Notes: a model not told the origin generated them from the sequence alone. Positions 5,524-60,973 are shown, numbered from the stretch's first letter. The stretch: DNA of 64,000 bases from a virus (IMGVR_UViG_3300010270_000379:11649-75648), one strand, 5' to 3'. A program made the numbers and translations.

Positions 5524-5640
5524 AAAAAAAAGGCAGCCTAAAATCTAATCTCAGTAAGATTAAATTCTAAGCTGCCCTTTTCAGAACATACTAATTATTA
5601 TGTCTATTTTGATTTTATTCTATTAATGCTCTGTTGTCAA
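5524..5640 (-). promoter_or_regulatory. Late leader L1: promoter + TGTT box + terminator hairpin (tail operon)
   Basis: TTGACA(5640-5635)-17-TAAAAT; ATGTTCTGAAAAGGGCAGC...GGCTGCC followed by T-run. Confidence 0.8.
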
Positions 5641-5820
5641 TGTTTTATAAATGCTACTCTTAAAATCACATTTACTAAAATCCGGCTTAAAGTTCAAATC
5701 AGCATTTTCCGGTATTTCAACCTTGCATTTATACCCCATTTTATTACATACTTCACAAGAATAATCAGCCCTTGTAAGACTTTCAACAATCAAATCAATT
5801 AATTTTTCTTTTTCATTCAT
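5623..5820 (-). CDS. Small hypothetical protein (CxxC)
   Basis: GGAGG RBS, 65 aa. Confidence 0.6.
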   Translation of the reverse strand: MNEKEKLIDLIVESLTRADYSCEVCNKMGYKCKVEIPENADLNFKPDFSKCDFKSSIYKTLTTEH

Positions 5821-5890
5821 AGTTTTATTCCTCCATAATTAAAGAATAATCTATGAATAAAATTATTTCATTCAACTTGTAGTTGAAAAA

Positions 5891-6733
5891 TTAATTACCG
5901 GAATACATCTTGTTATCAGCCTGAATTCCTTCATTAATAATACTATCAATCTTAGGTCTAACAGTTCTTTCCAATGCTCCCATCATATCAACCGGTGGTA
6001 TAGCATCTTTGTGATAAATCCAACTATTAGCCGGTGATTTTGCTGAAATAATACGGAAAGTAAAATAAGAACTTCCGGTAACATCTTTCATTCTTACCAT
6101 ACCAACACTTCTATCATCCCAAGCCTGATCCTCTGTTAATCTACCCTTTTTAGCCCAATCATAACCTTGTCTTTGAACGCTTTCACCCTTAAAGTTATCT
6201 TCAAAATATTTCTTAGCCGCATTTACGGCCGATAATTGCAGTCCCTTTACTGATGTTTGATAATTCTTTTGTGGAATAAAATTATTAAAATGAGCTCTTT
6301 TCGTTCCCTTTTGATTAGGTGTTCCCCATCTAAAAGGAATAATTAAATAAGGTATACCTTTTTTACTAACCCTGGATTTATTGCCATAAGGATGTGTTTG
6401 TTTCATATCATATTCAACTTCTTTCTGGCCTTTTGTTTTTGCTTCCAATTGTCTATTATCAGATGATATAGAATAATGAAAATCACCTAGTTTTTCAGAT
6501 CTAATAGATCTAACCATAGCGCTAGTTACACCATCGAGAAATTCAATACCATTTAATTGTTCTGAGCCTGTTAAATATCCGGTCCATGCATTATGAACTA
6601 ACTGAGCAGCCCTTCTAAATGCATTTGCTGTATTAGGCAAGGCCGCTTCTGGAGCATTTTCAACAGTCTTTGAAAAGTTATCTACGAGTTTCTTTAATTC
6701 TGATAAATCATATTCAATGGTATATGTAGTCAT
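5891..6733 (-). CDS. Neck/head-closure-like protein
   Basis: YDMK...YLIIPFRWGTP motif recalled from large-myovirus neck genes; synteny. Confidence 0.55.
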   Translation of the reverse strand: MTTYTIEYDLSELKKLVDNFSKTVENAPEAALPNTANAFRRAAQLVHNAWTGYLTGSEQLNGIEFLDGVTSAMVRSIRSEKLGDFHYSISSDNRQLEAKTKGQKEVEYDMKQTHPYGNKSRVSKKGIPYLIIPFRWGTPNQKGTKRAHFNNFIPQKNYQTSVKGLQLSAVNAAKKYFEDNFKGESVQRQGYDWAKKGRLTEDQAWDDRSVGMVRMKDVTGSSYFTFRIISAKSPANSWIYHKDAIPPVDMMGALERTVRPKIDSIINEGIQADNKMYSGN

Positions 6734-6735
6734 TT

Positions 6736-7971
6736 TTAATAACTCGAATTAATTCCCTTCTTTGTTATTTCATTATTCTTCTGAACATTTACGGCAGCTT
6801 TTTCAGCATAAGCAGAGAATAGTTTTACAACTACCTTCTTAGGCAATCGCTGATTTTCACTTGTACGCAATTGAGGAATCTGTTTTACAACACGATATGT
6901 AGGCATAATATGATATGTAATAGAATATGCTTCGCCAAATTCCGGCATATTTTCAGCATCTTCAAGCCATTTAATTTTATTAGTTCCGACAAGAATAAAG
7001 TCTACACCCTGTTTATATTCTACTTCTTCACCTTCAATAATTCCCTTTACTGATACAATATCATAGACAAAATCGGCCCCTATTGTATCTGTAACGAGCT
7101 TAGAACGGCAGATAACGTCTTTTTGTGTATAGCTTCCGGCCAAAACAGTAAGAATATCATCGTTAGATACATCACATTCATAAGGGAAAGAACATACCGC
7201 ATCACCATTACTTTCTTCTACAGCCTGAGCATCACCTTTATTTAAGTTCTGGCTAAGTAATACAAAAATAAACGGTGGAATATATTCTACATTTTCAACC
7301 GTTACCGGTTCTGTAATAGAAATTTCTTCTTTTGTATCTGGATCCGTTGTAGGTTCAATTCTAAACTGATTCAGCCTAAATTCTTTTGCTTTATACTCTA
7401 TTCCGGCAGCATCCGTGATTTTACCAATATTAATAATGTCACTAGGAGCCGTTTGATATAAACCTTCAACATTCTTTTTTGCATTAATCAACTCTGGAAT
7501 AGTATAATATCCCATATTATTCTTTTCTGCCTCTGCAGATGCTAATACCTGAGTTATCTTTTTTCTTAAAATGACTGTAAAATAAGTTCCCTTTTCGGGA
7601 ACATTTTGAGTATTTAAATAAATATAATTACAATTCTTTTTTGCATTTGGATAATTGTTTCCCTTCTGATCATAAATCTCAATCAATTCAGCCTGTTTAA
7701 TTTGCAGTGTATTATCAAGTTCAAGAATACCGTCATTATTAAACAGCATAACAACAGAATATGAGATCATGTTTTTAAGATATGTATATGTATAACCTCT
7801 ACCGGCACAAAAAGGACAATGTATATCCGGCTGCATAGTTCCAGGTTTTACACAAGAACATTTTTCAGCTATGCGCCATCTAAGCCACTGACCGTGACGT
7901 TCAATAAGAGCTTCATAATTATCTTTACCTAAACTAAATTGTATAGGTGTGTTACGGCCTAACCCAACCAT
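6736..7971 (-). CDS. Neck/stopper-like virion protein
   Basis: CSC...CPFCAGRG motif; synteny between adaptor and tail completion. Confidence 0.55.
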   Translation of the reverse strand: MVGLGRNTPIQFSLGKDNYEALIERHGQWLRWRIAEKCSCVKPGTMQPDIHCPFCAGRGYTYTYLKNMISYSVVMLFNNDGILELDNTLQIKQAELIEIYDQKGNNYPNAKKNCNYIYLNTQNVPEKGTYFTVILRKKITQVLASAEAEKNNMGYYTIPELINAKKNVEGLYQTAPSDIINIGKITDAAGIEYKAKEFRLNQFRIEPTTDPDTKEEISITEPVTVENVEYIPPFIFVLLSQNLNKGDAQAVEESNGDAVCSFPYECDVSNDDILTVLAGSYTQKDVICRSKLVTDTIGADFVYDIVSVKGIIEGEEVEYKQGVDFILVGTNKIKWLEDAENMPEFGEAYSITYHIMPTYRVVKQIPQLRTSENQRLPKKVVVKLFSAYAEKAAVNVQKNNEITKKGINSSY

Positions 7972-7975
7972 AGCG

Positions 7976-8605
7976 CTATTCTCCTATCTCTCTATATAAA
8001 GTTTCATCACCATAGCATTGATGGTATATATCTGGCCTAAATAAGTCCTTTAAGCTGAATTTTCCTATTCTGATTACTTTAAGATTCCAATATCCAGGAA
8101 GCGGCGGCATGTATGAAATAATATCGCTTTTATGAGCATATTGTTTTACTTCATTAAAAAATAAGCGACTGATTAATTTTGATATAAAAAATACTAAAGG
8201 TTTAGGACTCCCAAAAGTAATTAAATCCGGTTTAATTCCTGATTGAAAATAAATCTCTATTCCGGTTAATACAGAACCGGCACCGCCATAAGAATGACCG
8301 CAACAAACTACCTTATAATCTGGAAAAGTATTCATTGCTAGTAATACTTCATTCATTATCATACCTTTACAGGAATTAAAAGCGCTTTGCCATCCTAAAG
8401 CTGCAAAATAAACATACCAACGCCTTAACTGTGGAATGATAAAAAATAATAAATTGATTATCCAATCTTTTATAGAAGTTGAAAATTGTGTGAAAACATA
8501 TATTGTCTTTTCTTCATGGATTATTTTAGTACACCAATTATAATCAAATGTGTTACTTTTATATTCCATATTTTTCTGAAATTTATATAAGTTCCACGGT
8601 TTCAT
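7976..8605 (-). CDS. Class-3 lipase-like alpha/beta hydrolase
   Basis: VVCCGHSYGG nucleophile elbow, LITFGSP, DIISYMP Asp, C-terminal His. Confidence 0.8.
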   Translation of the reverse strand: MKPWNLYKFQKNMEYKSNTFDYNWCTKIIHEEKTIYVFTQFSTSIKDWIINLLFFIIPQLRRWYVYFAALGWQSAFNSCKGMIMNEVLLAMNTFPDYKVVCCGHSYGGAGSVLTGIEIYFQSGIKPDLITFGSPKPLVFFISKLISRLFFNEVKQYAHKSDIISYMPPLPGYWNLKVIRIGKFSLKDLFRPDIYHQCYGDETLYREIGE

Positions 8606-8618
8606 CTTTCAAAACTCC

Positions 8619-8687
8619 CTATTTACAACATAAATAAACAAGTCCAACTGCAATAATCCAGGCAATAGCTGATACAAGATAATACAT
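8619..8687 (-). CDS. 22-aa hydrophobic micropeptide (MYYLVSAIAWIIAVGLVYLCCK)
   Basis: GAGGGG RBS; single TM helix; not in ORF track. Confidence 0.5.
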   Translation of the reverse strand: MYYLVSAIAWIIAVGLVYLCCK

Positions 8688-10609: not shown

Positions 10610-12058
10610 TTAGTAAAGTCCACCAGAATAACCAACGTTCTTAATAAGAGCATTGTATTCAGGAGCACGAACTTCGAGCATACCGTAAAGTGCAACAACA
10701 CCACGGTGAGCGAGGCTTGAATCTGTTGGAAGGTCGAAGTTTGACATTGCCATCAACTGACCAAATGAAGTATTAGGCTTCATTTCATCTGTTGTAGGTG
10801 TAAGCAATACAATAGATGCTGTTCCTGGAAGGTCCTCATTCAAGTCTACTACTACAGTAGTTGTATCAGGAGACTTAGCAACACGTACCATTTCCATCAT
10901 TTCTGTACCACCGGCCTTAGAACGTGTGATAATAAATCCTGTAGCTGGTTCACCGTTTGTATCAGGTGTAATAGTAAGAGTTACTTTTTCACCACTTGCA
11001 ACGGCTACAGCAGATCCAAGAGGCTTAGCTGCTGAAATACCATAAGCATTTACGGCATGTACGGCATACATATAATTTCCGGCCCATGCTGTTGTGAATT
11101 TAGATGCTGATTCACTTGCAGCAACGGCTGTAAAGTTAGAAGGTGTATTAGGTCTCTTAGCCTGGTTTCCGGCAGCTACTACAGGGCCCTTTACCTTAAA
11201 CATCTTATCTGCACCGGCATCATCTGTAATACGAATAGTTGAACCTGTAGGAGTAAGAATATCAGGCAATTTCTGCAATGCAAAAGTATCATCACGTGGT
11301 GTAAGACGGAGACGTGAACTGTACATAGACTTAAACTGACGAGCAATAACAGGTGGGAAGTAAGCCTCTGACAAGTCACCACCTTTATCGAATACCTTCT
11401 GAGCAACTTCATCAAAGAGAGCTTCGCCGGCATCAATTGTATCACCATCAATATTTCCTGATTCACCAATTTCCAAACCACGAACATCCATAACTGTAGC
11501 GCGGAGTTTTTCAGCTACAGAAGTATTCTTTGCAGAATCTTCAATAATCTTCAAAAGTCCATCGTACTGTTTAGGAGATACGCTTGAATCACCGTGGAAA
11601 ATACAACGCTCTGTACCCTTAGATACACGCATTACAGCAGCTACTTTAGATGCATTGATAGCATTTTCTACATTGTCTGTAAGTGTAAGAGGATGTGAAG
11701 TCTGCCACTTACTTGACATGTATTTTGTTTCGTAAATCTTACGAGAGAACTGTGGATCACCCTCTGGAGCTCTTTCAGATTCACCAACAAACAAGAATTC
11801 ATCATCACCTACATCTGTTTCACGTTCAATCTGGTGAACAGTAGACTTAACAGGCAGTTTGTGAAGTTTATGGAACAACTTCAAATCTTTCTGTTTTACG
11901 TCAAGAACGGTTACAAGTGTAGCCTCCAAATCTTCACGCTGCAAAGATCTACCCTGAGTATAATCTGCAGCATTTGTACCATAACCGGCTTCAAGAGCCT
12001 TTTCGAGTTCTGTATTCTGAACTTCATTGTCAAATTCATTAAAAATGCTTTCTTCCAT
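10610..12058 (-). CDS. Major capsid protein (Herelleviridae-like)
   Basis: LEKALEAGYG N-terminus, SLQREDLE, FHGDS, QYDGL, YGMLEVRAP; 482 aa. Confidence 0.9.
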   Translation of the reverse strand: MEESIFNEFDNEVQNTELEKALEAGYGTNAADYTQGRSLQREDLEATLVTVLDVKQKDLKLFHKLHKLPVKSTVHQIERETDVGDDEFLFVGESERAPEGDPQFSRKIYETKYMSSKWQTSHPLTLTDNVENAINASKVAAVMRVSKGTERCIFHGDSSVSPKQYDGLLKIIEDSAKNTSVAEKLRATVMDVRGLEIGESGNIDGDTIDAGEALFDEVAQKVFDKGGDLSEAYFPPVIARQFKSMYSSRLRLTPRDDTFALQKLPDILTPTGSTIRITDDAGADKMFKVKGPVVAAGNQAKRPNTPSNFTAVAASESASKFTTAWAGNYMYAVHAVNAYGISAAKPLGSAVAVASGEKVTLTITPDTNGEPATGFIITRSKAGGTEMMEMVRVAKSPDTTTVVVDLNEDLPGTASIVLLTPTTDEMKPNTSFGQLMAMSNFDLPTDSSLAHRGVVALYGMLEVRAPEYNALIKNVGYSGGLY

Positions 12059-13605: not shown

Positions 13606-13719
13606 AAAAAAAATAGGGCAGCCACAACGAATAACGTTATGACTGCCCTTTTCAGAACAAATCTTAATCTAAATATGGAATATATTATTATTATAAATCT
13701 ATAATTTTACATTTGTCAA
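13606..13719 (-). promoter_or_regulatory. Late leader L2 (head operon)
   Basis: TTGACA(13719-13714)-18-TATAAT; TTGTTCTGAAAAGGGCAGTC...GGCTGCCC followed by T-run. Confidence 0.85.
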
Positions 13720-13780: not shown

Positions 13781-13960
13781 TTATCTCTGAACCTTTATAG
13801 CCTTGCCGTTTTCAAACTTAATCTTAGGCTTTGGTAAACCTAATCTTTTGCAAAAATCTTCCATATCTTCACCGGCAATTTTATTATCCATTAAATCAGC
13901 TTTGGATAACGCTACATCTTTAGTCCATTTTTCTGGCTCTTTTGTTTTTGGTAAATCCAT
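13781..13960 (-). CDS. 59-aa protein downstream of zeta-like gene; candidate antitoxin/partner
   Basis: AGGAGG RBS, MDLPKTKEPEKW...; just below the ORF-track size cutoff. Confidence 0.65.
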   Translation of the reverse strand: MDLPKTKEPEKWTKDVALSKADLMDNKIAGEDMEDFCKRLGLPKPKIKFENGKAIKVQR

Positions 13961-13980: not shown

Positions 13981-14010
13981 ATTTTATATACATATTATCG
14001 GTTTTGTCAA
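13981..14010 (-). promoter_or_regulatory. Sigma70-type promoter for 13781..13960, with no leader terminator
   Basis: TTGACA(14010-14005)-18-TAAAAT. Confidence 0.6.
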
Positions 14011-14033: not shown

Positions 14034-15233
14034 TTATACTTCTTCACCCTTCTTAGCTATCTTTTCAGCCGTGTACTTATTTTTACCGGTATTTGGATCC
14101 TTTTCAAAAGGAATAAAGTTATCATAGAAGGACCAATCATCGGCAAAATCTTTTACTTTATCAAAATTAGCTTCATTGCCTGTCATATTAAGTAATACAT
14201 CTGGCGGCACAAATCTACCGGTAAAATCTTCTACATTCTTTTCGGTAGGGCTTTCAATATAACGTTTAATAGCACGTTTCAAACTTTCCTGTTTTGGAAC
14301 ATGCATATAATAAGCGCCTGTTTTATATCCGGCATCTTTAGCTAGTTTTAATTCTTCAATCTGTTTATCAGCATTTGACATTGTAATATCCATTACAATA
14401 TTAAGGCCCTGGGCCATAGCTGCCTTCATAAGCATTTTAGACAAATCTGAGCTTTCTTCATGGTAGGCCTTTGCTTTCCATCCTTCCCATTTTTCGCCGG
14501 ATTCATTTGCTAATTCTTCTTTCAATGCATCTGGATCCACTACAATAACGTTATCCTCATTGTATACACCGGCATCAGATTTCTTTTTATTGAAAGTAGA
14601 CTTTCCAGAACCACCACGGCCCCCTAAAATCTGGAAAGTAGGCAATTCACCGTCTTTTGGTGTAGCTGCTGCAACTTTCTCAGGTGATAACAATTTTTTG
14701 ATAATTGTTTCATGCAATTTCTGTCTTTCTGGAGTATAAATAGCGTTTACACCTTCACCAGATTTACGGAATTTTGTAACTGTTTCAGGCTCTTTATTTG
14801 CACGTTCTAAGTCATATCTGAATTTCATTTCAAATTCAGGATGCTTTTTTACAATAGGCAATTCAAGAATAGCCTTAATTGCGTTTTTCATTCCTTCTGG
14901 TGTAGCTGCATTAATTGATTCATCGTCATAAGTTCTTTTATAATCAGCGGCTTTAAATTTACTTGCTGCAACCTGTTTACGGCCGTATGTTGGAGCAAGC
15001 TGTTTAGTAGGTGTAGTTACCTCTTTTTTGCCTGTTCCAACACTTTCAGGCCCCTTCTTTTCTGAGTTTCCTTTAGGTGTATAAACTTCTCTCCATTTTC
15101 CAGGAGCAACCTTTTTATATTTTTTACCTCTCCACTCTCTTATTGTACCAATTCCATAACCTCTTGATTTCTGAAAATCAATGTCATCAAGAAAAGTATT
15201 ATAAACTGATTTCTTTACAAATAACTTTTTCAT
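14034..15233 (-). CDS. Tagged cargo A: zeta-toxin-like P-loop kinase
   Basis: GGRGGSGKST, VVDPD, YHEESS, IVMDIT, GRFVP, WSFYDN; N-terminal GYGIGTIREW tag; start MKKLF. Confidence 0.8.
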   Translation of the reverse strand: MKKLFVKKSVYNTFLDDIDFQKSRGYGIGTIREWRGKKYKKVAPGKWREVYTPKGNSEKKGPESVGTGKKEVTTPTKQLAPTYGRKQVAASKFKAADYKRTYDDESINAATPEGMKNAIKAILELPIVKKHPEFEMKFRYDLERANKEPETVTKFRKSGEGVNAIYTPERQKLHETIIKKLLSPEKVAAATPKDGELPTFQILGGRGGSGKSTFNKKKSDAGVYNEDNVIVVDPDALKEELANESGEKWEGWKAKAYHEESSDLSKMLMKAAMAQGLNIVMDITMSNADKQIEELKLAKDAGYKTGAYYMHVPKQESLKRAIKRYIESPTEKNVEDFTGRFVPPDVLLNMTGNEANFDKVKDFADDWSFYDNFIPFEKDPNTGKNKYTAEKIAKKGEEV

Positions 15234-15246
15234 TTTACACCTCCCA

Positions 15247-18060
15247 TTAAAGACAATTACAGCGATTAAAGGCTTCACTTACCATCATTTCAGTAGAATT
15301 GAACAATTCAGGCTGCTCTGCAGAATAATCATTGAACAATGATTCATTTTCTTCTTCCGGCTCTTCTTCTTCATCTTCTTCAACAAACATATCTACAATG
15401 AAGTCATCAAAAAGAGATTTCTTTACAGTAATTCCACGTTTCTCTAGTTCTTCCTCAAATCTCTCAATTACTTCTGGATGTTCTTTAGCTGTTGTTTGAT
15501 ACAAAATAGCATCTCTTAAACCTAATTTAAGTTTATTATCAACCTTTGTATCTTCTGTAATGTATTCTTTTTTATCCATTACTTTATCAAGGTTGAATTT
15601 CAATCTGTCATAATTGAGTTTCAATGTTTCATCACTCATATCCGCCATTCTTTCAGTAAGATTTGCTGCTGCAGAATCGGAAAGTCTCTTGAAACGATCA
15701 CCATAATGCTCTTTTATTGAGGCTACAAATTCCTCGTTTGTCTTTTTATATGCTTCTTTAAGAGCTGATTTTTTTTCATTAGCATCTTTTTTCGCCTGTC
15801 TACCCTTGCCATAATCCATTTTTTTATCTGAGCCGGACATAGGCATAAGGATAGATGAACTAGAGCCGGTGTTAATCTCAATTGCCTTATCAGCTCTTTC
15901 ACCTATCTGTAAAATGGATGTTTTACCAGATAAAGCATTTACCAGGTAATCAGCATTGATATTCATATAGTTAGTATCTTCTTTTGCCGGGCCCCAATCT
16001 TCGCTATATTTCATTTTTATATCTTTTGCTTCACCTACCGGAGTATCATCAATGAATACTTTACCATCACGGAATTCAAGCTGAACAAGATTTGTACCTT
16101 TTTTATCAATAGCACCATCTTTCTGCATTTCTTTAATCTTATCTTTTACAAGTTTTGTATCTAAAGTTGCTGTCTGTTTAAGATCTTCTGGAATAACCTT
16201 AGAATAATTAGGGAATCTTGCATCTACATCAATTTTTTTGATATTAATTCCTGATTTATCAGTATTAATATCAACATAAGAACCATTTGGTATACCTTCA
16301 AGTTCTCCAACTTCAATAAATTTCATTCTACGAGCATCAGTAGTTATAAGTTTTCCATTTTCATAATAGACATGCTTCATAAACTCTCTACTATCCCACT
16401 TTGGAGCTACACAATTTTTAAGAGATTCAATCTCATTTGCAAGATCTTTAGAATATGGCAATTGTACTTCATTTTCACCTACACTCTTATTACTTGCAAT
16501 CGGCTGTAATTCATCAAAAGAAACAACCTTACCAGAATTATCTACACTGTAGATTTTTTCAGTTTTTTCCTCTTTAGGAGTTTCCTTAGTTTCTTCTATA
16601 GTTTTTTCGGCTTCGGATTCTTCAAGAAGTTTTTTACATTCAGTATAAAAGGCAGCACTTAAATGATTAGAACAAAGTTCTACCTGATGATCTATATCAC
16701 TTAGCAATTCAATATCAGTTTCATCTTTACTTGTAAACAATGCGTTATCTTTTACATGCTTTTCAAGTTTATTAATCAGCTTATTTTTATATTTAGAAAT
16801 AACTTCATTAACGGTTGTACCTTCATCAGCATATTCTGAATAGCGTTTAAGCCTTTCATCAACAAGTTTTTTGTTTTCTTCAAGTTTTCCTTCTTTTATT
16901 ATCTCCGGTAATTTTTCCTTAATTTTATCAAGTTTTTCCTTTAATTCTGCTTCTAATTTAGGCTTTGCTGTTTTTTCAAACTCTGTATTGATTTTATCAA
17001 TACCTTCTTTACATCTAATTGCATTTGCAATTTCAGATCTTACAGCCCATTCTTTACCTTCTTTATCAACCTTAAATATAGCATCACCTACTTTTAATTC
17101 ACCCTTACGAGCTACTTCGTTAATTTTATCAGCCATTTCAAGATATTTTACACCCTCACCTTCATCATTTTTATCTACTCCACCAAAAGGCACTTCTTTA
17201 GTTTCAGTTTTCTTTTCATCTTCTGATTCTTCTTCATATCCAAATTCATTATTAATAGCATCCTTCATACGGCCTGAAAGTTTTTCAAGTTCTTCACGGT
17301 ATTTTTTTTCACCTTCTGAAATGTTTTTTTCTGAATAAATGAGACGTAACTTACCTAAAGCCTCTAACTCTGGATCATTAAGTTCATTAGGATTCATCCC
17401 CTTTGCCTTTGCTTCTGGTCTTAATTTTTTAGCAACTTTATCATAGGCTTCTACAATATTATCAAGAGTTTCAGCATCATTTTTCCCCTTTAATGATTGC
17501 TCATACTCTTTTTCATAATCTTCCTGTGTTTTTATTTTCTTTTCAGCCGGCTTAGAAGTTGTTTTACTTCCCATATCACCGTTATTCTTAGCATCTACAG
17601 CGGCACGGAGTTTATCAAGAACCGGCAAGTCAATTCCATTTTCATCAACAAAGCGCTGTTTATTCTGCATTACAAAGGCCATAAGGTCCTCAACGTTATC
17701 AATCTTCTGTACTCTTGCAATCAATTTACCAATTGCAATATTTGTACCACGGCCTTCTTTATCAAAAACTCTGGCCCATTTACCCGGAGCAATTTTCTTA
17801 TACTTCTTTCCCTTCCAAATTCTGACTGTTCCTACACCGTAGCCGGCTTTCTGGATCCATTTTCCACTAATAAGAGACTTTTCAAGATGTGTATAATGTC
17901 CTTCCTGAGAATTGAAATAATCAATTGCTTTTTTTACATCTTTTTCATCCTGTTTTTTCAAGATTTCAATAATCTCTTTTTTAAGTTCTGCTAACTTTCT
18001 ATCGTTTACAGCCTTACAAACATTCTTGAATTCACTAGCCTTTACCATGAATCTTGCCAT
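15247..18060 (-). CDS. Tagged cargo B: polyvalent protein with beta-clamp-like domain
   Basis: Shared N-terminal module; TTDARRM, FPNYSKVIP, INADYL and ILMPM align with DnaN at 56585..57703. Confidence 0.7.
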   Translation of the reverse strand: MARFMVKASEFKNVCKAVNDRKLAELKKEIIEILKKQDEKDVKKAIDYFNSQEGHYTHLEKSLISGKWIQKAGYGVGTVRIWKGKKYKKIAPGKWARVFDKEGRGTNIAIGKLIARVQKIDNVEDLMAFVMQNKQRFVDENGIDLPVLDKLRAAVDAKNNGDMGSKTTSKPAEKKIKTQEDYEKEYEQSLKGKNDAETLDNIVEAYDKVAKKLRPEAKAKGMNPNELNDPELEALGKLRLIYSEKNISEGEKKYREELEKLSGRMKDAINNEFGYEEESEDEKKTETKEVPFGGVDKNDEGEGVKYLEMADKINEVARKGELKVGDAIFKVDKEGKEWAVRSEIANAIRCKEGIDKINTEFEKTAKPKLEAELKEKLDKIKEKLPEIIKEGKLEENKKLVDERLKRYSEYADEGTTVNEVISKYKNKLINKLEKHVKDNALFTSKDETDIELLSDIDHQVELCSNHLSAAFYTECKKLLEESEAEKTIEETKETPKEEKTEKIYSVDNSGKVVSFDELQPIASNKSVGENEVQLPYSKDLANEIESLKNCVAPKWDSREFMKHVYYENGKLITTDARRMKFIEVGELEGIPNGSYVDINTDKSGINIKKIDVDARFPNYSKVIPEDLKQTATLDTKLVKDKIKEMQKDGAIDKKGTNLVQLEFRDGKVFIDDTPVGEAKDIKMKYSEDWGPAKEDTNYMNINADYLVNALSGKTSILQIGERADKAIEINTGSSSSILMPMSGSDKKMDYGKGRQAKKDANEKKSALKEAYKKTNEEFVASIKEHYGDRFKRLSDSAAANLTERMADMSDETLKLNYDRLKFNLDKVMDKKEYITEDTKVDNKLKLGLRDAILYQTTAKEHPEVIERFEEELEKRGITVKKSLFDDFIVDMFVEEDEEEEPEEENESLFNDYSAEQPELFNSTEMMVSEAFNRCNCL

Positions 18061-18087: not shown

Positions 18088-18192
18088 AAAAAAAAATAAG
18101 GCAGCCGACTACTAAAAATAAGTAATCGACTGCCCTTTACAGACATATCTATGTATTTACTTTATTATGTTACATAATTATTAAATAATCAA
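18088..18192 (-). promoter_or_regulatory. Late leader L3 (cargo B/A operon)
   Basis: TTGATT-17-CATAAT; ATGTCTGTAAAGGGCAGTCG...CGGCTGCC followed by T-run. Confidence 0.75.
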
Positions 18193-19163: not shown

Positions 19164-22100
19164 CTATTTACGAATTAAGAAGCGGCCATCTTTAATAAGA
19201 TATTTTGGAAGTGATTTCTCTATTTTACCGGCACCGTCAATGTCAATTTTAATATCCTTACCGGTTTCTGCCATAATCTGATTTACAGCATAGCGGCCGT
19301 TTCTATTCAATTGTCGCTGCCATGCACCCTGAGAAGGAGACCATCTAAAGCCGTTATGTTTAAGTTTATCAATAACGTCTCTTTCTGGCTTTCCATCGTA
19401 GATAATCTGAATTCTATCAAGCTCTGGATTTTCATAGATATAACCACCATCAAAATCTACACGGCCGGTATTTGTGTTTGAACCTGATCCGCCTTCATTA
19501 TTGCTTTCAGATGCTTTTCTTTCATCAATAACGGCCTGTCTTTTCTGTAGTTCTTCAAGTCTCTGTTTATTTCTACGAATATCGGCTGTCTGATTTGAGC
19601 CAAACGGATGTTCTATCCCCTGTTTAATAACTTCATCAGAATATCCTTTTTCTTTTGCAGCATTTACAGTCTGAGTTAAAACTTCACGTCTTTTAGCTCT
19701 ATCTTCATCAGATCTATCAGCCCATTGCCAATTGGTAATACCGTTCTTTTTACACATTTTGTTGTAAAGAAGTGTAACGTCATGTGAATCTTCCATGAAC
19801 TTGATTTTTCCCTGGATTTTCTCAATAGCGTATGGATCTGTATTGTCAATCTTATCGCCATAACTCCATTTTCCCCTAGAGTAATCTTCAAAAACTTTCT
19901 TCTTTACATCTTCAACGCTATCATTACCGCCGGTATATTTCAGCTCTTTCAAACGTTTTTCAGTGTTCTTAATAAACTTTTCTTTCTTTTCTTCAAAAGT
20001 TTCGTAGGCACGTCTTTCTGCTTCCATCTTCTGATTAAAACGTTTTGTATTATATCTAGCCGGGCCGGCTACTGCCCATGAAGGGCCGGCAGCAAGTCTT
20101 TTACTTGCCATTTCATTATAGCTACTTCCAACTAATCCGGCATAAGCATTAATACGCTCCTGGAAATATGCTTTTTGCTGCTCATTCATCTTTGAAACAT
20201 TGAACTTATCACGGAAATTTGACATTTCAACATTTACATCATGCTGATAAACTGAGCCGGCATTACCTGACATTGAAATATCACTAACTCTACGGGCTGT
20301 TTCTGAATCAATTCTAGGAATAGGTGTAACTATACCATCCCTAGCGTCTTTTTCATCCATTTCAGCCCTTGCAACGTTATCTCTTGCAGCATTAAGTTTC
20401 TTATCAAGTTCAAATCCGTTGCCCTGGCCTATCTGACTTTCAAGATCTTTTAATTCTTTTTTTGCATCTTCAACGGCATCAGAATCGCTCATTTTTCCGT
20501 TATAAGCGGCATCGTGTAAAGTCAAAAGCTCTCTACGATCATCACCGGTGTAATTCTTTGTTGAATCTGTAAGTCTGGTAACTTCGGCCATAAGCTCTTT
20601 TATTTTTGAGCTACCGTTAAGCCATTTCTGATAATCAGAATCAGGCCCCATATCCTTTTCACTCAATCCACCACCAAAACCGTTATTCTTTTCATAAAGA
20701 GCAACGTTTTCTTTTTTCTGTTTAGTGATTTCTTTACCAAGTTTCTTATATTCTGCTACAGCTTCATCCTTAGTAAAATTAGAATAATCGACTACAGGCT
20801 CATTTTCTTCCGGCTCAACAAGTCTAAATCCGGCCGCATTATCATTGCCTAACATAGCATTAGAGCGATTTTCATGCTTCTCTGCTTCTGTTTCTTCCGG
20901 CTCTGTATCAGGCTCATTCTTTACTTCTTCAAGTTTCTGTTTAAGCTGCTCACGATAGTCTTTTTTACTCTGTATTGTTTCTTCATCATCAAGATTGTTG
21001 ATTTCAATACCGAGTTTAATAATTCTATCTTCCAAAGTCTGTATTTTTTCTTCTTTAGAAAGTCCACCAAGATATACAGGAGGTTCTTTTTCAAGGGCCT
21101 CAGCAAATTTATCAAGCAATTCACCAAATTTTTTAGCTTCTTCTTTTTCAGCCTTCTTTTTCTTTTCTTCCATTTCTTTCTGGTATTGTCTGGTTTTTGC
21201 TTCCTTCCAGATTTCTTTATTTTTTTCCTGTATATCTCGTCTTTCCCTATAGGCTTTCAGTTCTTCTTCTGTAGGCTCTGTAAGCTGTTTTTCAAGGTCC
21301 TTAATCTGGTTTTCAATTTCTGTCTGCTGCTCTTTTGTCAAACTAGCCCATTTTGTAGCACGGCCACGATAAAGTTCACGTTTCAAAGCCATAAGTTTAA
21401 GATGGTCGTAATATGGATGATCCGGGAATACACTACAACTATCTTTCTCAAAATAATCTGTCATCATATCAGTATTATTTTCAGGATAGAAAATAGAAGG
21501 AATACTAGCACCGTAACTATCAGCATACAAGCGAATATATTCACTTCCATCATCAGCTTCACGAATTGTAGCGTCAATCTTTTCAAGTTTACCGGATTTA
21601 TCTTTAATACCATCTTTTGTAAATCTGTATCGAGGAATATTTGAAGTATCTGAGCTTTCATTATAGGCATTACTTACACCCATAACAGTATTAAAGAACT
21701 TCTCAGCAATTGTTGAACCTGTTGCACCGTCAAGCTGCTCTTTAAGATCGTTTACTTTCTTCCAAACTTCTGTAAATGTTTCATCGTCATTAGGCATATA
21801 TCTAGGTCGATAATTCTCTTTTTCGGCCATTTCTTTCAAGTCTACAACGATATAACCAGGTCGCTTAAACTTATCTTCATAGTTGATTCTTACAGATGGA
21901 TTGTCGATTGTTTCAGTATCACCCAAAGAGAATGAATAGCCATCACCAAAGGCCAAAGCATCTGAGTAATAACCACCGAATTTCTTATAAAGCCAATCAC
22001 TAGAAATAGTCTGGCCCTTTACCTTACGTTTAATCCATTCATTGATTGTATCATGGTATACAGAAGGAATTTTGAATGAGCCTTTATTTTCTTCTTTAAG

Positions 22101-23105: not shown

Positions 23106-23136
23106 CTTAATTTTCCTCCCAGGAACGAAAAAAAAT

Positions 23137-23254
23137 AAAAAAAGGCAGCTACCAAAAAACAGATCCAAAAATCTGTTAATTGATAACTGCCCTTTTCAGA
23201 ACATATTATTTGTAATGTTTAAGTTATTTTATAACAGTATTACCCAAAAATCAA
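23137..23254 (-). promoter_or_regulatory. Late leader L4 (cargo C operon)
   Basis: TTGATT-17-TAAAAT; ATGTTCTGAAAAGGGCAGTT...AGCTGCC followed by T-run. Confidence 0.8.
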
Positions 23255-28563: not shown

Positions 28564-28660
28564 AAAAAAGCAGCCGGCAACAATCCTTAAAAGATATTGC
28601 CGACTGCTCATTACAAACAAATCGTATTTATATTATAAATCACTTTTTGTATAAAATCTA
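28564..28660 (-). promoter_or_regulatory. Late leader L5 (LPD3/MuF/cargo D operon)
   Basis: TAGATT-17-TATAAT; TTGTTTGTAATGAGCAGTCGG...CCGGCTGC followed by T-run. Confidence 0.75.
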
Positions 28661-34260: not shown

Positions 34261-34553
34261 TATCTGGCCCCCAATTTTTCCTTTAGATTCTGGCCGTTGA
34301 ATGACATACAGTAATTAAGACGTTTTATATTTCCCAGGATTAAATCAAATTCGATGCTGCCGTAAAAATTTGGACTTGTACAAAGCTCCATCAACTTTTT
34401 ATCAAAATCATCATTGTCATTGTTAGATTCTTCTAACCGTGAATTTACTGTTATTGAAACAATATTTGATTTTTCAATTCCGAATTTTAAGTGACCTGTA
34501 AAAGCCTTAGCTTTATACTTTTCAACCTCTGCGTTTATTTCAGCAAACAGCAT
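34260..34553 (-). CDS. Hypothetical protein with internal duplication
   Basis: FTGHLKFGIE / FYGSIEFDLI repeat. Confidence 0.55.
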   Translation of the reverse strand: MLFAEINAEVEKYKAKAFTGHLKFGIEKSNIVSITVNSRLEESNNDNDDFDKKLMELCTSPNFYGSIEFDLILGNIKRLNYCMSFNGQNLKEKLGAR

Positions 34554-45672: not shown

Positions 45673-45700
45673 CTAAACAGATTGACAATCTGTATTAATC

Positions 45701-45796
45701 ACACGTTTTTATGTGATTACTCTTTAATTAATAACACGTTTTCGTGTATTTGTCAATAAAAAATCTCAACATTTTATGTGATTTTTCCGATATAAT
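45701..45796. promoter_or_regulatory. Switch 1: divergent promoters with type-1 operators
   Basis: Minus-strand TTGACA(45756-51)-17-TATTAA; ACACG-TTTT-CGTGT at 45734, related sites at 45701 and 45766; plus-strand TATAAT at 45791. Confidence 0.7.
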
Positions 45797-45802
45797 AGCG
45801 TT

Positions 45803-46081: not shown

Positions 46082-46206
46082 CCTCCTATAAGATTTTTGT
46101 CGTTCGTCATTTATGTCGCGCGACTTTTCCAGAATCTTATAGGAAATATATTGTTTTAATGTAGTTGAATTCGCTTGAATCGTCACTTTAATTGCTTAAA
46201 GCAAAA

Positions 46207-46860
46207 TTAAAGGCCATTTTCTTGTTTAAATTTCTCTACCAATTCACCGGTAGAATTGCACATATTTCTTTCCCTGGCTGATTTTATTTTATGTGTTATT
46301 GTCTGCTCTGAAAACAGGCCTATTTCTTTTTGTAACTTACCTTTTGCAAGCTCTTTTAAAATATCTATTTCATCCTTAGTTAGATTTAGTTTCTCTGGTT
46401 TATTAATTGCAAATACATAATTCATTTTAATCTGAAACATAAACACATAAACTATATGAATCAGAAAGGCAACTATATCTAATCTTTTAATACTAAATGA
46501 AATAACAACGTTTATAAGATATATCCAGGGAGCTACCTTTTTTAATTTTGGATTAGCACCTATGGCAATCAGCATAAAAAAGATTGTAGCATAGTTATAA
46601 AACATGTTTACATAAACTAATGAGCATGAATATATTAAAAGTCTATAAGATAAACCTTTACGACCAAACAGGAATATAAAAAGTGATATAATACCGCATC
46701 CACCGGCACGTAAATACCAATGATATTCTATGCTGCTAGTTTTATATTCATAAAAATGCAATGCAATTAAAAGTAAGTGTAAAAGAAAAATGTGTAATAA
46801 ATCTTTGTCATTTATAAGTAATAAATATTTTTGTTTCAGCTTTGTAAATAGTTTTCTCAT
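46207..46860 (-). CDS. Multi-TM protein with C-terminal LuxR-like HTH
   Basis: About five hydrophobic segments, then LTKDEIDILKELAKG...KEI...SEQTITHKIKSAR. Confidence 0.65.
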   Translation of the reverse strand: MRKLFTKLKQKYLLLINDKDLLHIFLLHLLLIALHFYEYKTSSIEYHWYLRAGGCGIISLFIFLFGRKGLSYRLLIYSCSLVYVNMFYNYATIFFMLIAIGANPKLKKVAPWIYLINVVISFSIKRLDIVAFLIHIVYVFMFQIKMNYVFAINKPEKLNLTKDEIDILKELAKGKLQKEIGLFSEQTITHKIKSARERNMCNSTGELVEKFKQENGL

Positions 46861-46894
46861 TTATGCTTTTATTTTCGGCATAAATGAGATTAAA

Positions 46895-48496
46895 CTAAAT
46901 TATGAGCATCGACTTTCTGATTGATTTATTCATATCGGCTGTATCCGGTGGAATTTCTTCTTCTGTCTCAGTTTCTTCAAATCCGGCTTCTTCACCGCCG
47001 CCAAAATCACCCATATCTCCGCCCATACTGTCATCATTCATGGTCTGTTGGCTCTGGAATAACTGTACAAGTTGTACATTCATAGGCAAGTCTGCAGCAT
47101 TTTCAACTTTTCCCAAGTCTATAGGATCCAGGCCCTTCTCAGCTCTCTTTTCGTTTACAGTTTTCCAGGTTCTTACTTCTTTTTCATCCAGATCCGCGAT
47201 AGTGTTAGGATTATCTTTTTCATATCCTACAAACTCTAATACATAATTTTCATCAATTTTTTCAATGATTCTGTTAAGATATGATTCAAAGAATACAAGT
47301 AAATCACCAAGTAAAGAACTTTTTGCAGCAGCAATTCTATCAGATCCGGCACTATCAATAACAGGCTGTGACTTTTGAATTTGTAATCCAATTTCATCAG
47401 CAGAACAACCAAATAAAGCTAATACACCACTTACAAGATAATCTATCCAAGCCTGGAATTCCATTTCACGGTTAGTATTTATCGGCTTCCACTCGATTTT
47501 AGCATCTTTATCGCCACTAGGAATAATTGGAATTCGCCACTGATTTAACGGACTTCCTGACATAATCTCACTTATGTATTCTTCCATTTCATCAAGATTA
47601 TCAGAATTCATATCACCGCTTAAAAGTAACATACCTTTAGGCAATCTGTTTTCAGTAAAGTTTCCGGCATTGTAAATGAATGTGTTAATAACCGATGTAA
47701 TAAGATCTACGGCCTGTTCTACAAGAGAATAACCATATTTTGAATGGTAAATGTCGGTTCTAGGATTTTCAAAGGCAAAAATCATATTTTCATAGGTGTA
47801 ACCGGCTGCCGGCATACCGTCTACAATCTGCAAATACTTGAATGTAGTTTCATTTTCCTTCTCAGGTATTACACATTCAATAGTTGCAGCATCCACGGCA
47901 AAAAACGCTACCGGCTCACCCTTTTTATTATACTGAATTTCTGTTGCTATCTGGTCCAATGTCAATTCATCACGCAAAAGTTTAGTACAATAAGTAACAA
48001 AATTGTCACGGCCTGGATCCTTATAATTTCCGGTTGAAACAATAAAATCCCTGATTAAATCACATTTTTTATCTTCATTTTTGTTGTTGGATATAATTTC
48101 TTCATACTTTTTATGTATAATAAATCCTCGTTCATTACGACTTGTAACCGGCTTCAAAAATGGTTTAATTCTTCTTGAAACATAGTTGATACAGGTATTA
48201 ATAATCCAGGCCTTAGATGCTACAGCCCTTAAAGTTCTACAATGAATTCCGCCATACTGAATTCTTGATAGAGTTCTAATATTCTCAAAACTATTAGATG
48301 ATACAAAATAAGGATCATAGAAAACAGAATCGGCACCATGTTCACGGCCTTTTTCCTGGAAGAAGTAAGTATTAAAGATATTTTTACTATCCTTTTTAGC
48401 TTCTACAAGTTCATTATAAGCGACTCTCTTAGAATTTGTTTTATCAAAAGCTGCTCTTTGTTTTAAAAGTTTATCAACATCAATCTTTTCTGCCAT
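46895..48496 (-). CDS. Portal protein
   Basis: RDELTLDQIATE, AVDAATI, YGYSLVE, YNAGNF, PKGML, FGCSADEIG; start MAEK. Confidence 0.9.
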   Translation of the reverse strand: MAEKIDVDKLLKQRAAFDKTNSKRVAYNELVEAKKDSKNIFNTYFFQEKGREHGADSVFYDPYFVSSNSFENIRTLSRIQYGGIHCRTLRAVASKAWIINTCINYVSRRIKPFLKPVTSRNERGFIIHKKYEEIISNNKNEDKKCDLIRDFIVSTGNYKDPGRDNFVTYCTKLLRDELTLDQIATEIQYNKKGEPVAFFAVDAATIECVIPEKENETTFKYLQIVDGMPAAGYTYENMIFAFENPRTDIYHSKYGYSLVEQAVDLITSVINTFIYNAGNFTENRLPKGMLLLSGDMNSDNLDEMEEYISEIMSGSPLNQWRIPIIPSGDKDAKIEWKPINTNREMEFQAWIDYLVSGVLALFGCSADEIGLQIQKSQPVIDSAGSDRIAAAKSSLLGDLLVFFESYLNRIIEKIDENYVLEFVGYEKDNPNTIADLDEKEVRTWKTVNEKRAEKGLDPIDLGKVENAADLPMNVQLVQLFQSQQTMNDDSMGGDMGDFGGGEEAGFEETETEEEIPPDTADMNKSIRKSMLII

Positions 48497-48533: not shown

Positions 48534-48641
48534 AAAAAAGCCGGCTATTGTCTTTTTCAACAATAACCGGCTGCAGATTTCTCAACATACCTGATATATA
48601 ATTTATAAAGATATTTTACACTATAATGTTTTAATTGTCAT
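48534..48641 (-). promoter_or_regulatory. Late leader L6 (portal)
   Basis: ATGACA-17-TAAAAT; ATGTTGAGAAATCTGCAGCCGG...CCGGC followed by T-run. Confidence 0.7.
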
Positions 48642-49919: not shown

Positions 49920-50368
49920 ATTTTTACCACCGTATTTGTAGTTTCATCTATAATTTTTTCAATTTCCCTATTAAATGGCATTATAAATAACTGAGCAGCT
50001 TTTAATATTGGATCTATTTGTGTCTGTAAAGAGTTATTATATTTTCTTACTAACTCAATTTTATCTTCACCAACAATTACGGTAGAACCAGGATTATATA
50101 AGGATTTAATATATTGTTCACGTTGCTCCAAAATTTTATTATATTCAATTTTTAATTTCTGAAAATTATACAATTCCAATGCTGATACATGGCCGTATGT
50201 ATAACCATTATCAAAACAAACAAGATAAGTTGATTTACTTTGAGATAATTGTGCTAGAAATAATCTTTCTTCCAGAGCTTCTGCAGACTGTTTACAAACA
50301 ATTTTCACTTCTTCTGGAAGATTATTCCAATCTATTTTTTCAAGCTGATTTATTTCAATCTCACTCAT
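49916..50368 (-). CDS. Hypothetical protein
   Basis: In-operon ORF. Confidence 0.55.
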   Translation of the reverse strand: MSEIEINQLEKIDWNNLPEEVKIVCKQSAEALEERLFLAQLSQSKSTYLVCFDNGYTYGHVSALELYNFQKLKIEYNKILEQREQYIKSLYNPGSTVIVGEDKIELVRKYNNSLQTQIDPILKAAQLFIMPFNREIEKIIDETTNTVVKI

Positions 50369-50559
50369 TATTTATTAATCCTTCCGCACTTCGGACATTT
50401 TGGCTGCTTGTTTAATGGAGTTCCACAATAACCGCAATAATTGAACTGATTGGTTAGTTCTACGTTGATATATCCATATCCGTTACATCTTTTGCAAGGT
50501 TTACCCAAAATCTTTCCTGTTCCCTCGCAATCTCTACATGTTTCTTGCTCAAATTTCAT
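50368..50559 (-). CDS. DnaJ-type Zn-finger small protein
   Basis: CRDCEGTG...CKRCNGYG...CGYCG...CPKCG. Confidence 0.65.
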   Translation of the reverse strand: MKFEQETCRDCEGTGKILGKPCKRCNGYGYINVELTNQFNYCGYCGTPLNKQPKCPKCGRINK

Positions 50560-50573
50560 AGTTTTATTATATC

Positions 50574-50753
50574 CTAATAAGTACACATATAACAACTAAA
50601 ATGATTTTCTATATCCTTTTTAGTAGGCTTCTTATTCAATATCTTACAACCACATTCGCATGTTGTTTCCCAAGGTAAAGCCTTGTGTATACGATTATCA
50701 ACACCAATTACAGAAATATAGTATTTCTGATCTACTGTTTCGTTTTCATTCAT
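50574..50753 (-). CDS. 59-aa Cys-containing hypothetical protein
   Basis: Translated by hand (MNENETVDQKYY...CECGC...CYMC). Confidence 0.5.
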   Translation of the reverse strand: MNENETVDQKYYISVIGVDNRIHKALPWETTCECGCKILNKKPTKKDIENHFSCYMCTY

Positions 50754-53997: not shown

Positions 53998-54294
53998 TTA
54001 ATCTTGTTCTTCAAAAAACATTTTGACTTGATTTACATATTGCCTGGAAACATTTAGTTTTTTTGCAATTTCTATTTGTTTAGTTCCGGCCTGTAATTCT
54101 TCCTCAATTTTTTTTGCCATTCCAGATTTTAGTCTATGAGATTCTTTACAGGCTTTTACTCCATAGAACCGTAAAATAGATTGTACCCTTGTACGTTTCA
54201 TAGAATAAAAATCTGCAATTTCATCAACTGTTTTACCTTCCAGGGCCATTTTTTTTATATTATGATTTCTAGCAGCTCGTTCTGTCTGATTCAT
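53998..54294 (-). CDS. Double-HTH DNA-binding protein
   Basis: KTVDEIADFYSMKRTRVQSIL and KQIEIAKKLNVSRQYVNQV. Confidence 0.7.
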   Translation of the reverse strand: MNQTERAARNHNIKKMALEGKTVDEIADFYSMKRTRVQSILRFYGVKACKESHRLKSGMAKKIEEELQAGTKQIEIAKKLNVSRQYVNQVKMFFEEQD

Positions 54295-59558: not shown

Positions 59559-60231
59559 AATTCAATAATCCTTGCTCTGTAAACTTTTTGAATCTTTCTT
59601 CCTGTTTATCAAAGTATGTTTTACTAAGTTCACAGGCCCAAAAATCAAAACCATATTCATAGGCCGCAATTCTGCTTGAACCACTTCCTAAATGACTGTC
59701 GAATATCTTGTCACCTTTTACAGCGAATCGACTTAACAAATACTTGTATAATTCAACCGGCTTTTGTGTAGGATGGATTTTCTTTTCACAATTAAAACCG
59801 CCGTTCATCTGCTTATAAAGTTTTGCCGGCTTATCGTAACTAGTCCATGCTATTTCAACCTGACTAAAGTTTTCCCAGGGCTGACACTTATCCCAAGCTA
59901 CTACACATCTTGTAGGAGGCAGCTTGAAATAATTTCCACCCCATATAATTTGATTTTTACTAACACGGAATAATTCATTGAAATAGTTTTTATCCGGTGG
60001 AGTTTCATCCCATGTACAATCTGATTGATTCAATACTCTATTTTTCAATTTGCCGGATCCACCGTTTAACCTTTTCTTAGAGTTATATTTGCCATTAGAA
60101 TAGCCCCCCCCCATACTCATTTTAGGAGCATTAATACCATAAGGCGGATCCACAATAGCAATATCGAAAAACTTATCTGGAATAGTTTTCATGTATTCCA
60201 TACAATCCATGTTATAAACTTCACTAATCAT
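59548..60231 (-). CDS. N6-A/N4-C DNA methyltransferase (beta class)
   Basis: DCMEYM, IVDPPYG, HPTQKPVELY, FDSHLGSGSS. Confidence 0.9.
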   Translation of the reverse strand: MISEVYNMDCMEYMKTIPDKFFDIAIVDPPYGINAPKMSMGGGYSNGKYNSKKRLNGGSGKLKNRVLNQSDCTWDETPPDKNYFNELFRVSKNQIIWGGNYFKLPPTRCVVAWDKCQPWENFSQVEIAWTSYDKPAKLYKQMNGGFNCEKKIHPTQKPVELYKYLLSRFAVKGDKIFDSHLGSGSSRIAAYEYGFDFWACELSKTYFDKQEERFKKFTEQGLLNFGD

Positions 60232-60400
60232 TTTTCAGGACCTTAAAATCAACGTTTGTAAAGTTTTCAGCATCAAGAACATAATCGTCTTTTGCAGCCC
60301 TATAGTTACAATCAGCCATAATTAGAGCTTCATGCTCATTGTTTGCTTCAATTTCTACAGTTTTTTCAAGTGTTTCAGTTATCTGGACCTTATAAATCAT
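60224..60400 (-). CDS. DpnD/PcfM-like small protein
   Basis: YKVQITETLEKTVEIEA...EAL...Y...VLDAENF..VDF. Confidence 0.75.
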   Translation of the reverse strand: MIYKVQITETLEKTVEIEANNEHEALIMADCNYRAAKDDYVLDAENFTNVDFKVLKND

Positions 60401-60417
60401 ATAATTAATTCCTTTAG

Positions 60418-60523
60418 TGTATACTATTTGTTTACACCTGATTAAGATATTAATATCTGTAATATACATTGTCAAGAAAAATGTATATAAATTGTTTACT
60501 TTTTTAGTATTTTTTACGATAAT
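60418..60523. promoter_or_regulatory. Switch 3: two type-3 operators with divergent promoters
   Basis: TGTATA-N4-TTGTTTAC at 60418 and 60482; minus-strand TTGACA-17-TAATAT; plus-strand TTTACT-17-GATAAT. Confidence 0.75.
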
Positions 60524-60529
60524 AGAAGT

Positions 60530-60880
60530 ATGGAAAGCATAGATTACAAAGGAATTTATCAAAGAATACGATTAATGCTTGATAGTAGTAATTGCTCTGT
60601 TGTTGATTTAGCGAATTTTTTAGGGAAAACCAGACAAGTTGTGTATAAATGGCAATATGGATTAATGCATCCAACATTACCAGACTTACTAAAAATGGCT
60701 AATTTTTTCGGTGTACCACTTGAATATTTAATCTCAGGCAAAGAAGGCCCTATTGATGATGCTACAGCGGCCTTTCTTGTATCTACCAAAGACCTTACAG
60801 AAGAACAAAAAAAGATTATTTTTGCATCTATAAAGGCCCAAGTTGATATGTTTAAGAAAATGAATAAAGAAAATAAATAG
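60530..60880 (+). CDS. XRE-family HTH repressor 3 (apparently leaderless)
   Basis: SVVDLANFLGKTRQVVYKW...PTLPDLLKMANFFGVPLEYLISG. Confidence 0.85.
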   Translation: MESIDYKGIYQRIRLMLDSSNCSVVDLANFLGKTRQVVYKWQYGLMHPTLPDLLKMANFFGVPLEYLISGKEGPIDDATAAFLVSTKDLTEEQKKIIFASIKAQVDMFKKMNKENK

Positions 60881-60973
60881 ACAATTCTATACTTATATAT
60901 TATAATAATTTTATTAGGTGTTAGAGCCAATCTAAGCCGGCAATTTCTATTTTGAAGTTGCCGGCTTTTTTTT
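60878..60973 (+). promoter_or_regulatory. Late leader L7 (lysis operon)
   Basis: TAGACA(60878)-17-TATAAT(60901); GTGTTAGAGCCAATCTAAGCCGG...CCGGCTT followed by T-run. Confidence 0.75.

Follow-up and report, generated by a model that had tools for sequence, protein, structure and literature searches.

In a 64,000-nt stretch of phage DNA (the window; bases 11649-75648 of a 75.6-kb IMG/VR provirus, IMGVR_UViG_3300010270_000379), the operons for portal, cargo, head, tail and lysis proteins start with a compact leader of one design: a σ70-type promoter, a small RNA hairpin designated P1, a strong predicted terminator and the ribosome-binding site (RBS) of the first gene, in that order at 9/9 sites. 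Control through these leaders looks like a many-copy antitermination switch that has not been described before, and it is moderately probable that the switch depends on a factor acting at the RNA level, through P1, at each terminator. The best reading of the comparisons given below sets this antitermination nearer to the ribonucleic antiterminator (RAT)/LicT or N-boxB systems than to lambda Q. In lambda, the constitutive late promoter pR' yields a short RNA terminated at tR' until Q antiterminates; a preliminary description of the window, made from the sequence by itself, had proposed a distributed version of that arrangement. It was right in its logic and probably wrong in kind, since control here is more likely linked to RNA and to the terminator.

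All seven leaders of the preliminary description are found where it placed them in the window, and they read as it said. L1 through L6 are on the minus strand, and in every copy the terminator stem is followed by a U tract. L1 (type A; 5524..5640) has the promoter TTGACA-17-TAAAAT at 5640..5612, P1 at 5588..5573 and a terminator stem at 5577..5531, and heads an operon for a 278-aa protein, a 124-aa protein and the tail sheath (2563-4296). L2 (type A; 13606..13719; promoter TTGACA-18-TATAAT, 13719..13690; P1, 13659..13644; terminator, 13649..13615) heads the head operon, which comprises a 503-aa protein, a protein resembling major capsid protein (MCP-like, 10610-12058) and a lipase. L3 (type A; 18088..18192; promoter TTGATT-17-CATAAT, 18192..18164; P1, 18145..18131; terminator, 18136..18098) precedes a 937-aa protein and a zeta-toxin-domain protein (14034-15278), and L4 (type A; 23131..23254; promoter TTGATT-17-TAAAAT, 23254..23226; P1, 23203..23188; terminator, 23191..23144) a 1313-aa protein (19164-23105). 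L5 (type A; 28564..28660; promoter TAGATT-17-TATAAT, 28660..28632; P1, 28619..28605; terminator, 28607..28570) heads the unit for LPD3-like, InPase+MuF (25723-28131) and 696-aa proteins. L6 (type B; 48534..48641; promoter ATGACA-17-TAAAAT, 48641..48613; P1, 48587..48572; terminator, 48572..48539) heads the portal gene (46895-48496). L7, a type B leader on the plus strand whose P1 is the most diverged (60878..60975; promoter TAGACA-17-TATAAT, 60878..60906; P1, 60921..60935; terminator, 60934..60967), heads the operon that includes the endolysin gene (61830-62276). A terminator scan of the whole provirus adds two minus-strand leaders with type B P1 to the left of the window, L8 and L9 (G000:C1, ~8540-8630 and ~1783-1880); these have the promoters TTGACA-17-TAAAAT and TTGCCA-18-TATAAT, are followed by an RBS, and head tail-region operons. 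With these two the regulon has nine members, not seven.

The promoters and terminators of the leaders are predictions from sequence. The promoters had been called near-consensus, and they match at 9 to 12 of 12 positions (L2, 12/12; L1 and L7, 11/12; L6, 10/12; L3, L4 and L5, 9/12); leader promoters supply three of the six best σ70-type matches found in the window. The long hairpin and U tract said to lie before each first RBS are equally clear: minimum free energies range from -22 to -34 kcal/mol, with z scores of -5.1 to -10.2, and 0/200 shuffles do as well. As expected of intrinsic terminators, all nine hairpins have stems of 12-20 bp, each followed by 6-9 U and then by an RBS and start codon. 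They are very nearly the only strong coding-strand terminators in the 75.6-kb provirus; only two others reach -18 kcal/mol, and these are located inside an open reading frame (ORF) or consist of A-T pairs alone. The leader terminator of each operon also stands at the end of the preceding operon. The placement of a promoter just ahead of a strong terminator at every operon start argues that termination is conditional or partial.

The conserved element between promoter and terminator had been taken for a linear "TGTT box", nearly identical in L1, L2 and L4. The near-identity is there: the 17-mer TGTTCTGAAAAGGGCAG is exact in all three leaders and occurs exactly three times (0.17 expected; 0/100 shuffles reach three). 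The box is actually a small stem-loop, P1, of the pattern 5'-U-G-U-N-N(-N), loop, (N-)N-N-R-C-A-3', flanked by G-(A/G)-U-N on its 5' side and by an invariant G on its 3' side. The closing pairs are U-A and G-C, the inner pairs are variable, an A is sometimes bulged, and the loop is GAAA, GAGA, GCAA, UAA, AAAA or longer (5-7 nt). Changes in the inner pairs compensate one another: UGUUCU/AGGGCA in L1, L2 and L4 corresponds to UGUUAA/UUAGCA in L9, UGUUAG/UUAGCA in L8 and UUAGA/UCUAA in L7. In one large class of P1 elements, two or three pairs precede the bulged A (as in GUU-A-CGC / GCG-AAC), and U-A is exchanged for C-G and G-C for U-A. Readings of the box as a LexA/Cheo-box (only a half-site is present) and as a CsrA site (there is no GGA loop) were dropped when the sequences were read.

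The pairing was assessed in three alignments, two of which (A7, the bulged-A class, and A8, the plain class) come from other phages and contain none of the window's own leaders. In A2, 84.8% of cells are paired versus 68.2% after shuffling, with a covariation score of 0.36 versus 0.14; in A7 the corresponding values are 87.5% versus 59.6% and 0.64 versus 0.21, with changes on both sides in 6/6 pairs; in A8 they are 84.4% versus 70.4% and 0.44 versus 0.21. For all three alignments, 0/500 shuffles reach the observed values, which are counts on related sequences and not probabilities. Controls in which the pairing is slid along the alignment stay at or below 0.15, with the exception of the +1 slide in A2 (0.285). 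Judged by this signal, which is consistent and register-specific, P1 is a real RNA helix. Known families do not account for it: an Rfam scan of the whole window matches only a tRNA (LOOT, EAR and the other families give no match), permissive Rfam scans of L1 and L6 return generic hairpin matches far below the gathering score, and the literature search found no paper describing the P1 leader element.

P1 is fixed with respect to the terminator and not with respect to the promoter. The distance from the -10 hexamer to P1 varies between 12 and 30 nt across the nine copies (and, by reading, between about 5 and 26 nt in relatives), so P1 is not positioned relative to the promoter, and the nine promoters show no shared, conserved DNA element in or near them. 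The 3' end of P1, in contrast, always touches or overlaps the terminator stem (0 nt). In type A leaders (L1-L5) the terminator base is GCAG.../...CUGC and the 3' arm of P1 lies within the 5' arm of the terminator; formation of P1 removes 4-6 bp of the terminator base, a difference in folding free energy (ddG) of 10.4-11.7 kcal/mol, and with P1 forced the shortened stem ends ~4 nt away from the U tract. In these five leaders only one of P1 and the terminator base can form, which is the classic antiterminator/terminator overlap. In type B leaders (L6-L9) the terminator base is GCCGG and P1 ends exactly where the terminator stem starts. Both types coexist in one phage.

Conservation of the box in related prophages had been named beforehand as a check, and P1 is kept, with compensatory changes, in ~45 further leaders, mostly from Treponema prophages. 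The relatives were gathered through their portal protein and then scanned for terminators; where the portals are 45-65% identical, terminators followed by an RBS carry the same arrangement, and false-positive terminators inside genes do not. (Promoters upstream of the relatives' leaders were judged by reading and by a scan of one locus.) At this divergence the kept nucleotides are those of the closing pairs (U-A and G-C), the G that follows P1 and the flanking G-R-U; the retention of specific nucleotides across distant phages argues for a sequence-specific partner. With a covariance model of 31 positions and 5 pairs (R1), leaders are recovered down to ~60% portal identity, but not those of the bulged-A class, which were found by a separate terminator scan. 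R1 is a weak model, used here with stricter filters, and matches 2/101 genomes of the host genus; both of these bear prophages, so the element appears to be phage-specific rather than a host motif. An exact-pattern scan of IMG/VR with GAT(A/T)TGT-N4-11-CAGTCATT finds ~240 loci, only one of which is followed by a terminator; the rest were set aside as chance matches with no terminator after them. Two further observations concern the relatives. A rearranged prophage remnant in a Treponema metagenome-assembled genome (MAG) keeps one leader with a weakened U tract (L337:9859-9975), its P1 having the doubly compensated pairs UAUUAA/UUAAUA. Close relatives also have a third type of leader, GGGUUUUU(A/G)GG... 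followed by terminator and RBS (L259:2680, L260:4278, L264:4997, L338:4619), which is not found in this window.

These properties fit a simple scheme. The σ70-type promoter would fire, the nascent RNA would fold into the terminator, and a short leader RNA of ~60-110 nt would result. P1, set against the 5' arm of the terminator, would be the recognition site for a factor, most likely phage-encoded, that is made after induction; that a factor should read the nascent RNA is suggested by a hairpin locked to the terminator with kept closing pairs and flanks. With the factor bound, the base of the terminator stem could not form or act, and RNA polymerase would enter the operon. Since each operon start has its own P1 and terminator, one factor could turn nine units on at once, namely those for portal, head and lysis, three for cargo and those for the tail. 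Termination in the cell would keep the cargo genes silent in the lysogen, with readthrough expected on induction. In type B leaders the footprint of the factor might extend over the invariant G and the first bases of the terminator, or the factor might contact RNA polymerase, as for N-boxB. We lean toward a factor that occludes each terminator locally, as in RAT/LicT systems, rather than an N-like complex that is tethered and processive.

What the factor might be is suggested by gene position. Two small minus-strand genes, gp97 (97 aa; 34263..34553) and gp60 (a 60-aa zinc ribbon with invariant C4, C7, H45 and C47; 34081..34260), form a pair, gp60 always being adjacent to gp97, that lies just upstream of terS (33318-34121) in nearly all portal-family relatives. 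The unit that starts with gp97 has a plain promoter and lacks a P1 leader; in three phages the pair opens such a unit after a small terminator. Late regulators often sit at such a position, and one would not expect a regulator to be controlled by its own target site. The gp97 model (predicted local distance difference test score, pLDDT, 89.5) has a helix-strand-strand unit twice and looks like an internal duplication; the gp60 model has a pLDDT of 83.3. Foldseek finds no convincing match to either model (best E 0.14), a VIA search reaches a best Z of 5.8 for gp97 (to a de novo design) and 2.1 for gp60, and neither protein receives a name from PDB, Pfam, PHROGs or the protein atlas. gp97 and gp60 are no more than candidates for the P1 factor. 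Further candidates, both on the minus strand, are an unannotated Cys-rich small ORF at 50368-50595, in a 614-bp "gap" (two CxxCxGxG motifs, then a CxxC...CxxC ribbon; it accounts for the only match to PF03589 (Antiterm), an insignificant one of 8 bits), and a 98-aa tandem helix-turn-helix (HTH) protein at 53998-54294 (Sigma70_r4, 25.9 bits; HTH_23, 25.8 bits) with a weak PHROG match to "late transcriptional activator".

Several facts weigh against factor-dependent antitermination through P1. The searches yielded no trans factor for P1. P1 by itself is weak (-0.6 to -4.1 kcal/mol), and the promoters are matches to a consensus and nothing else. In type B leaders P1 and the terminator can coexist (ddG 0.3-2.3 kcal/mol), so simple strand competition cannot cover all copies. 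The gp97/gp60 pair is also awkward in its details: neither protein is basic or has a known fold, the pair is present in a termite-gut clade in which no leader lies within 10 kb of the portal gene, and two MAGs that retain leaders lack it (incomplete genomes or degraded prophages, one of them a rearranged remnant).

The main rival, which we consider unlikely, dispenses with the factor: the leaders would be fixed attenuators or insulators, leaky terminators that tune strong promoters and end the upstream operon, with P1 modulating termination, pausing or RNA stability unaided. That each leader terminator also ends the previous operon, that no factor has come to light, and that P1 does not compete with the terminator in type B leaders all speak for it. 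It is harder to reconcile with stems of 12-20 bp followed by 6-9 U, which should terminate very efficiently and so waste consensus promoters, and with closing pairs and flanks of P1 that are kept while its inner pairs covary, in excess of what generic stability needs. There is a smaller chance, slight at best, that each terminated leader is an end product in its own right, one of a set of small RNAs that work in trans in the lysogen, as short pR' RNAs of some lambdoid prophages do. A promoter, ~60-110 nt and a terminator are the architecture of a small RNA gene, and a by-product RNA of this sort is described from a Shiga-toxin phage (PMC7547250); however, the conserved part of the leaders is a helix and not a single-stranded seed, and the nine copies are each placed exactly before an RBS. 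A small RNA role would in any case add a function to the leaders, not replace gating.

A lambda Q-like mechanism, in which a DNA-binding antiterminator loads on RNA polymerase paused near each promoter, is a shade less probable still. The part of the preliminary proposal that stands is the layout, constitutive-looking promoters each followed at once by a strong terminator before late, cargo and lysis operons, which matches pR'/tR' logic in having strong promoters closely before terminators; small zinc-binding proteins are present as well (gp60 and the Cys-rich ORF at 50368-50595). The Q-like mechanism itself is unsupported. The statement that no Q or NusG homologue is present agrees with the family searches of the provirus (PF06530 and PF02357, no match; PF03589, 8.2 bits at an E value of 0.2, within a Cys-rich frame of 75 aa), and no conserved DNA element is seen at the promoters, whose spacing to the box is 12-30 nt. 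The conserved element is tied to the terminator instead, and its covariation is that of an RNA. It is this combination (covariation of P1, variable distance from the promoter, a distance of 0 nt from the terminator) that points to control at the RNA level. The least credible of the rivals makes P1 a processing or decay signal, such as a site for a host or phage endoribonuclease that shapes the late polycistrons, with the hairpins protecting the new ends. A conserved small stem-loop with a single-stranded 5' flank at every operon junction would suit this purpose; it would account neither for the consensus promoter before each terminator nor for the way P1 of type A leaders runs into the terminator base.

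The genome around the leaders is that of a provirus with a G+C content of ~33% in the window, where the minus strand carries nearly all genes. Family searches place the integrase at 62822-64000, the endolysin within the plus-strand unit already noted, methyltransferases, a dUTPase and a clamp-like protein at 56-60 kb, the portal at the minus-strand position given for L6, a CI-like repressor at 45803-46081 (plus strand), an antirepressor, YqaJ, RecT, an IstB-like loader, SSB and DUF1064 at 45.5-34.7 kb, and terS-like, HNH and TerL genes at 34.1-28.7 kb. Large "cargo" proteins (LPD3-like, InPase+MuF, 696 aa, 1313 aa, 937 aa and zeta-toxin-domain) fill 28.5-14.0 kb, and the MCP-like head gene and tail sheath, at the coordinates stated with L2 and L1, were assigned in the same searches. 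Most relatives of the portal come from Treponema MAGs of rumen and gut origin (two are inside 158-kb contigs), which makes a rumen Treponema the most likely host. Annotated phages and plasmids, searched for near-identity, gave nothing useful. Within 28669-48496 the portal gene is separated by 17 kb from terS/TerL, with the lysogeny and replication modules in between, and TerL is parted from the head genes by three cargo units; in relatives terS, terL and portal are contiguous. Each displaced module of this provirus has its own leader.

The early genes had been said to have no such leader. That is true of the P1 type; the antirepressor and replication operons have a leader of another kind. At 39056-39260 and 45530-45790 (minus strand) these operons start with a promoter, an upstream hairpin and a terminator; the terminators end in AGGGC-UUUCUUUUU, and three CGTTTAAAAG repeats occupy the interval between promoter and hairpin at ~39150-39215. 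These leaders may constitute a second, early attenuation system. A near-consensus minus-strand promoter at 14010..13981 (TTGACA-18-TAAAAT) has no leader terminator and drives a 59-aa ORF (13960..13781) directly after the zeta-toxin-domain gene; this ORF may encode an antitoxin or an immunity protein made in the lysogen. The gap that separates the L1 promoter from the end of the head operon holds a small, unannotated, Cys-containing ORF with its own RBS (5660-5819, minus strand).

Gene regulation in spirochaete phages is almost unknown, and the literature search found no paper on antitermination in a Treponema prophage. P1 offers a delimited, conserved RNA element with ~50 natural variants and a sharp prediction: one factor, nine switches. 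If confirmed, the scheme would provide a new RNA-protein antitermination pair and would explain both the silence of large cargo genes, including those for toxin-domain proteins, in lysogens and their co-induction. As a tentative proposal, one that we hold with less conviction than factor-dependence itself, Treponema prophages may have a new class of phage antitermination, in which a previously unrecognised RNA-binding factor, possibly gp97 together with gp60, binds a short, terminator-abutting hairpin with a bulged A or a GNRA-type loop, the promoter-hairpin-terminator unit serving as a portable "late-gene plug". A module bearing this cassette could be moved or added without rewiring. Any module, injected cargo enzymes and toxin-domain proteins among them, would join the late regulon just by having the plug, which would explain the shuffling of portal, cargo, head, tail and lysis modules; the modular layout bears on how phage genomes rearrange without loss of temporal control, and a cassette this compact could serve as a portable genetic switch.

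Among known systems, one close in geometry is that of BglG, SacY and LicT, in which a small hairpin also lies directly 5' of, and overlaps, the 5' arm of a terminator; L1-L5 fit this description, and a bound protein would likewise block the terminator base. The differences are that P1 is half the size of a RAT, that the four type B copies lack the terminator overlap (ddG 0.3-2.3 kcal/mol), and that one sugar operon is replaced by a phage regulon of nine. The Rfam bglG-cis-reg model reaches 21.5 bits, its gathering score being 80, and none of the ~80 ORFs scanned has a CAT or PRD match in Pfam. With lambda N/boxB the leaders share a 5-6 bp hairpin in the nascent RNA, often with a GNRA-like loop, as the putative tag for antitermination; P1 of L1, L2 and L4 is GUUCU-GAAA-AGGGC, and lambda boxB is GCCCU-GAAAA-AGGGC. 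N, however, reads the boxB loop, whereas the loops of P1 vary in sequence and length and its closing pairs are conserved instead; boxB acts at a distance, whereas P1 abuts the terminator; and the host here is a spirochaete. No boxA-like motif is seen by eye upstream of P1, only G-R-U-N, and no arginine-rich N-like protein was identified, small ORFs not having been scanned systematically for arginine-rich motifs.

A small-loop hairpin with a bulged A as a protein-binding site recalls the MS2 and PP7 coat protein operators, to which one class of P1 is similar; this is by analogy only, those being translational operators of RNA phages, and no relationship is implied. The NusG/RfaH/LoaP systems differ in that a NusG paralogue is expected nearby, and PF02357 has no match in the provirus. 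With lambda Q the leaders share the logic, a short terminated RNA until the antiterminator is present; Q acts at one promoter, by way of a DNA site and a pause close to that promoter, and what is found here is an RNA element, tied to the terminator, at nine. The parallel with Ogr/Delta of P2/P4 is one of organization: a single small zinc-binding phage protein acts on several late operons through a repeated cis element. Ogr, however, stimulates initiation, and its promoters have no -35 element, whereas the promoters of the P1 leaders look self-sufficient, with control placed at the terminator.

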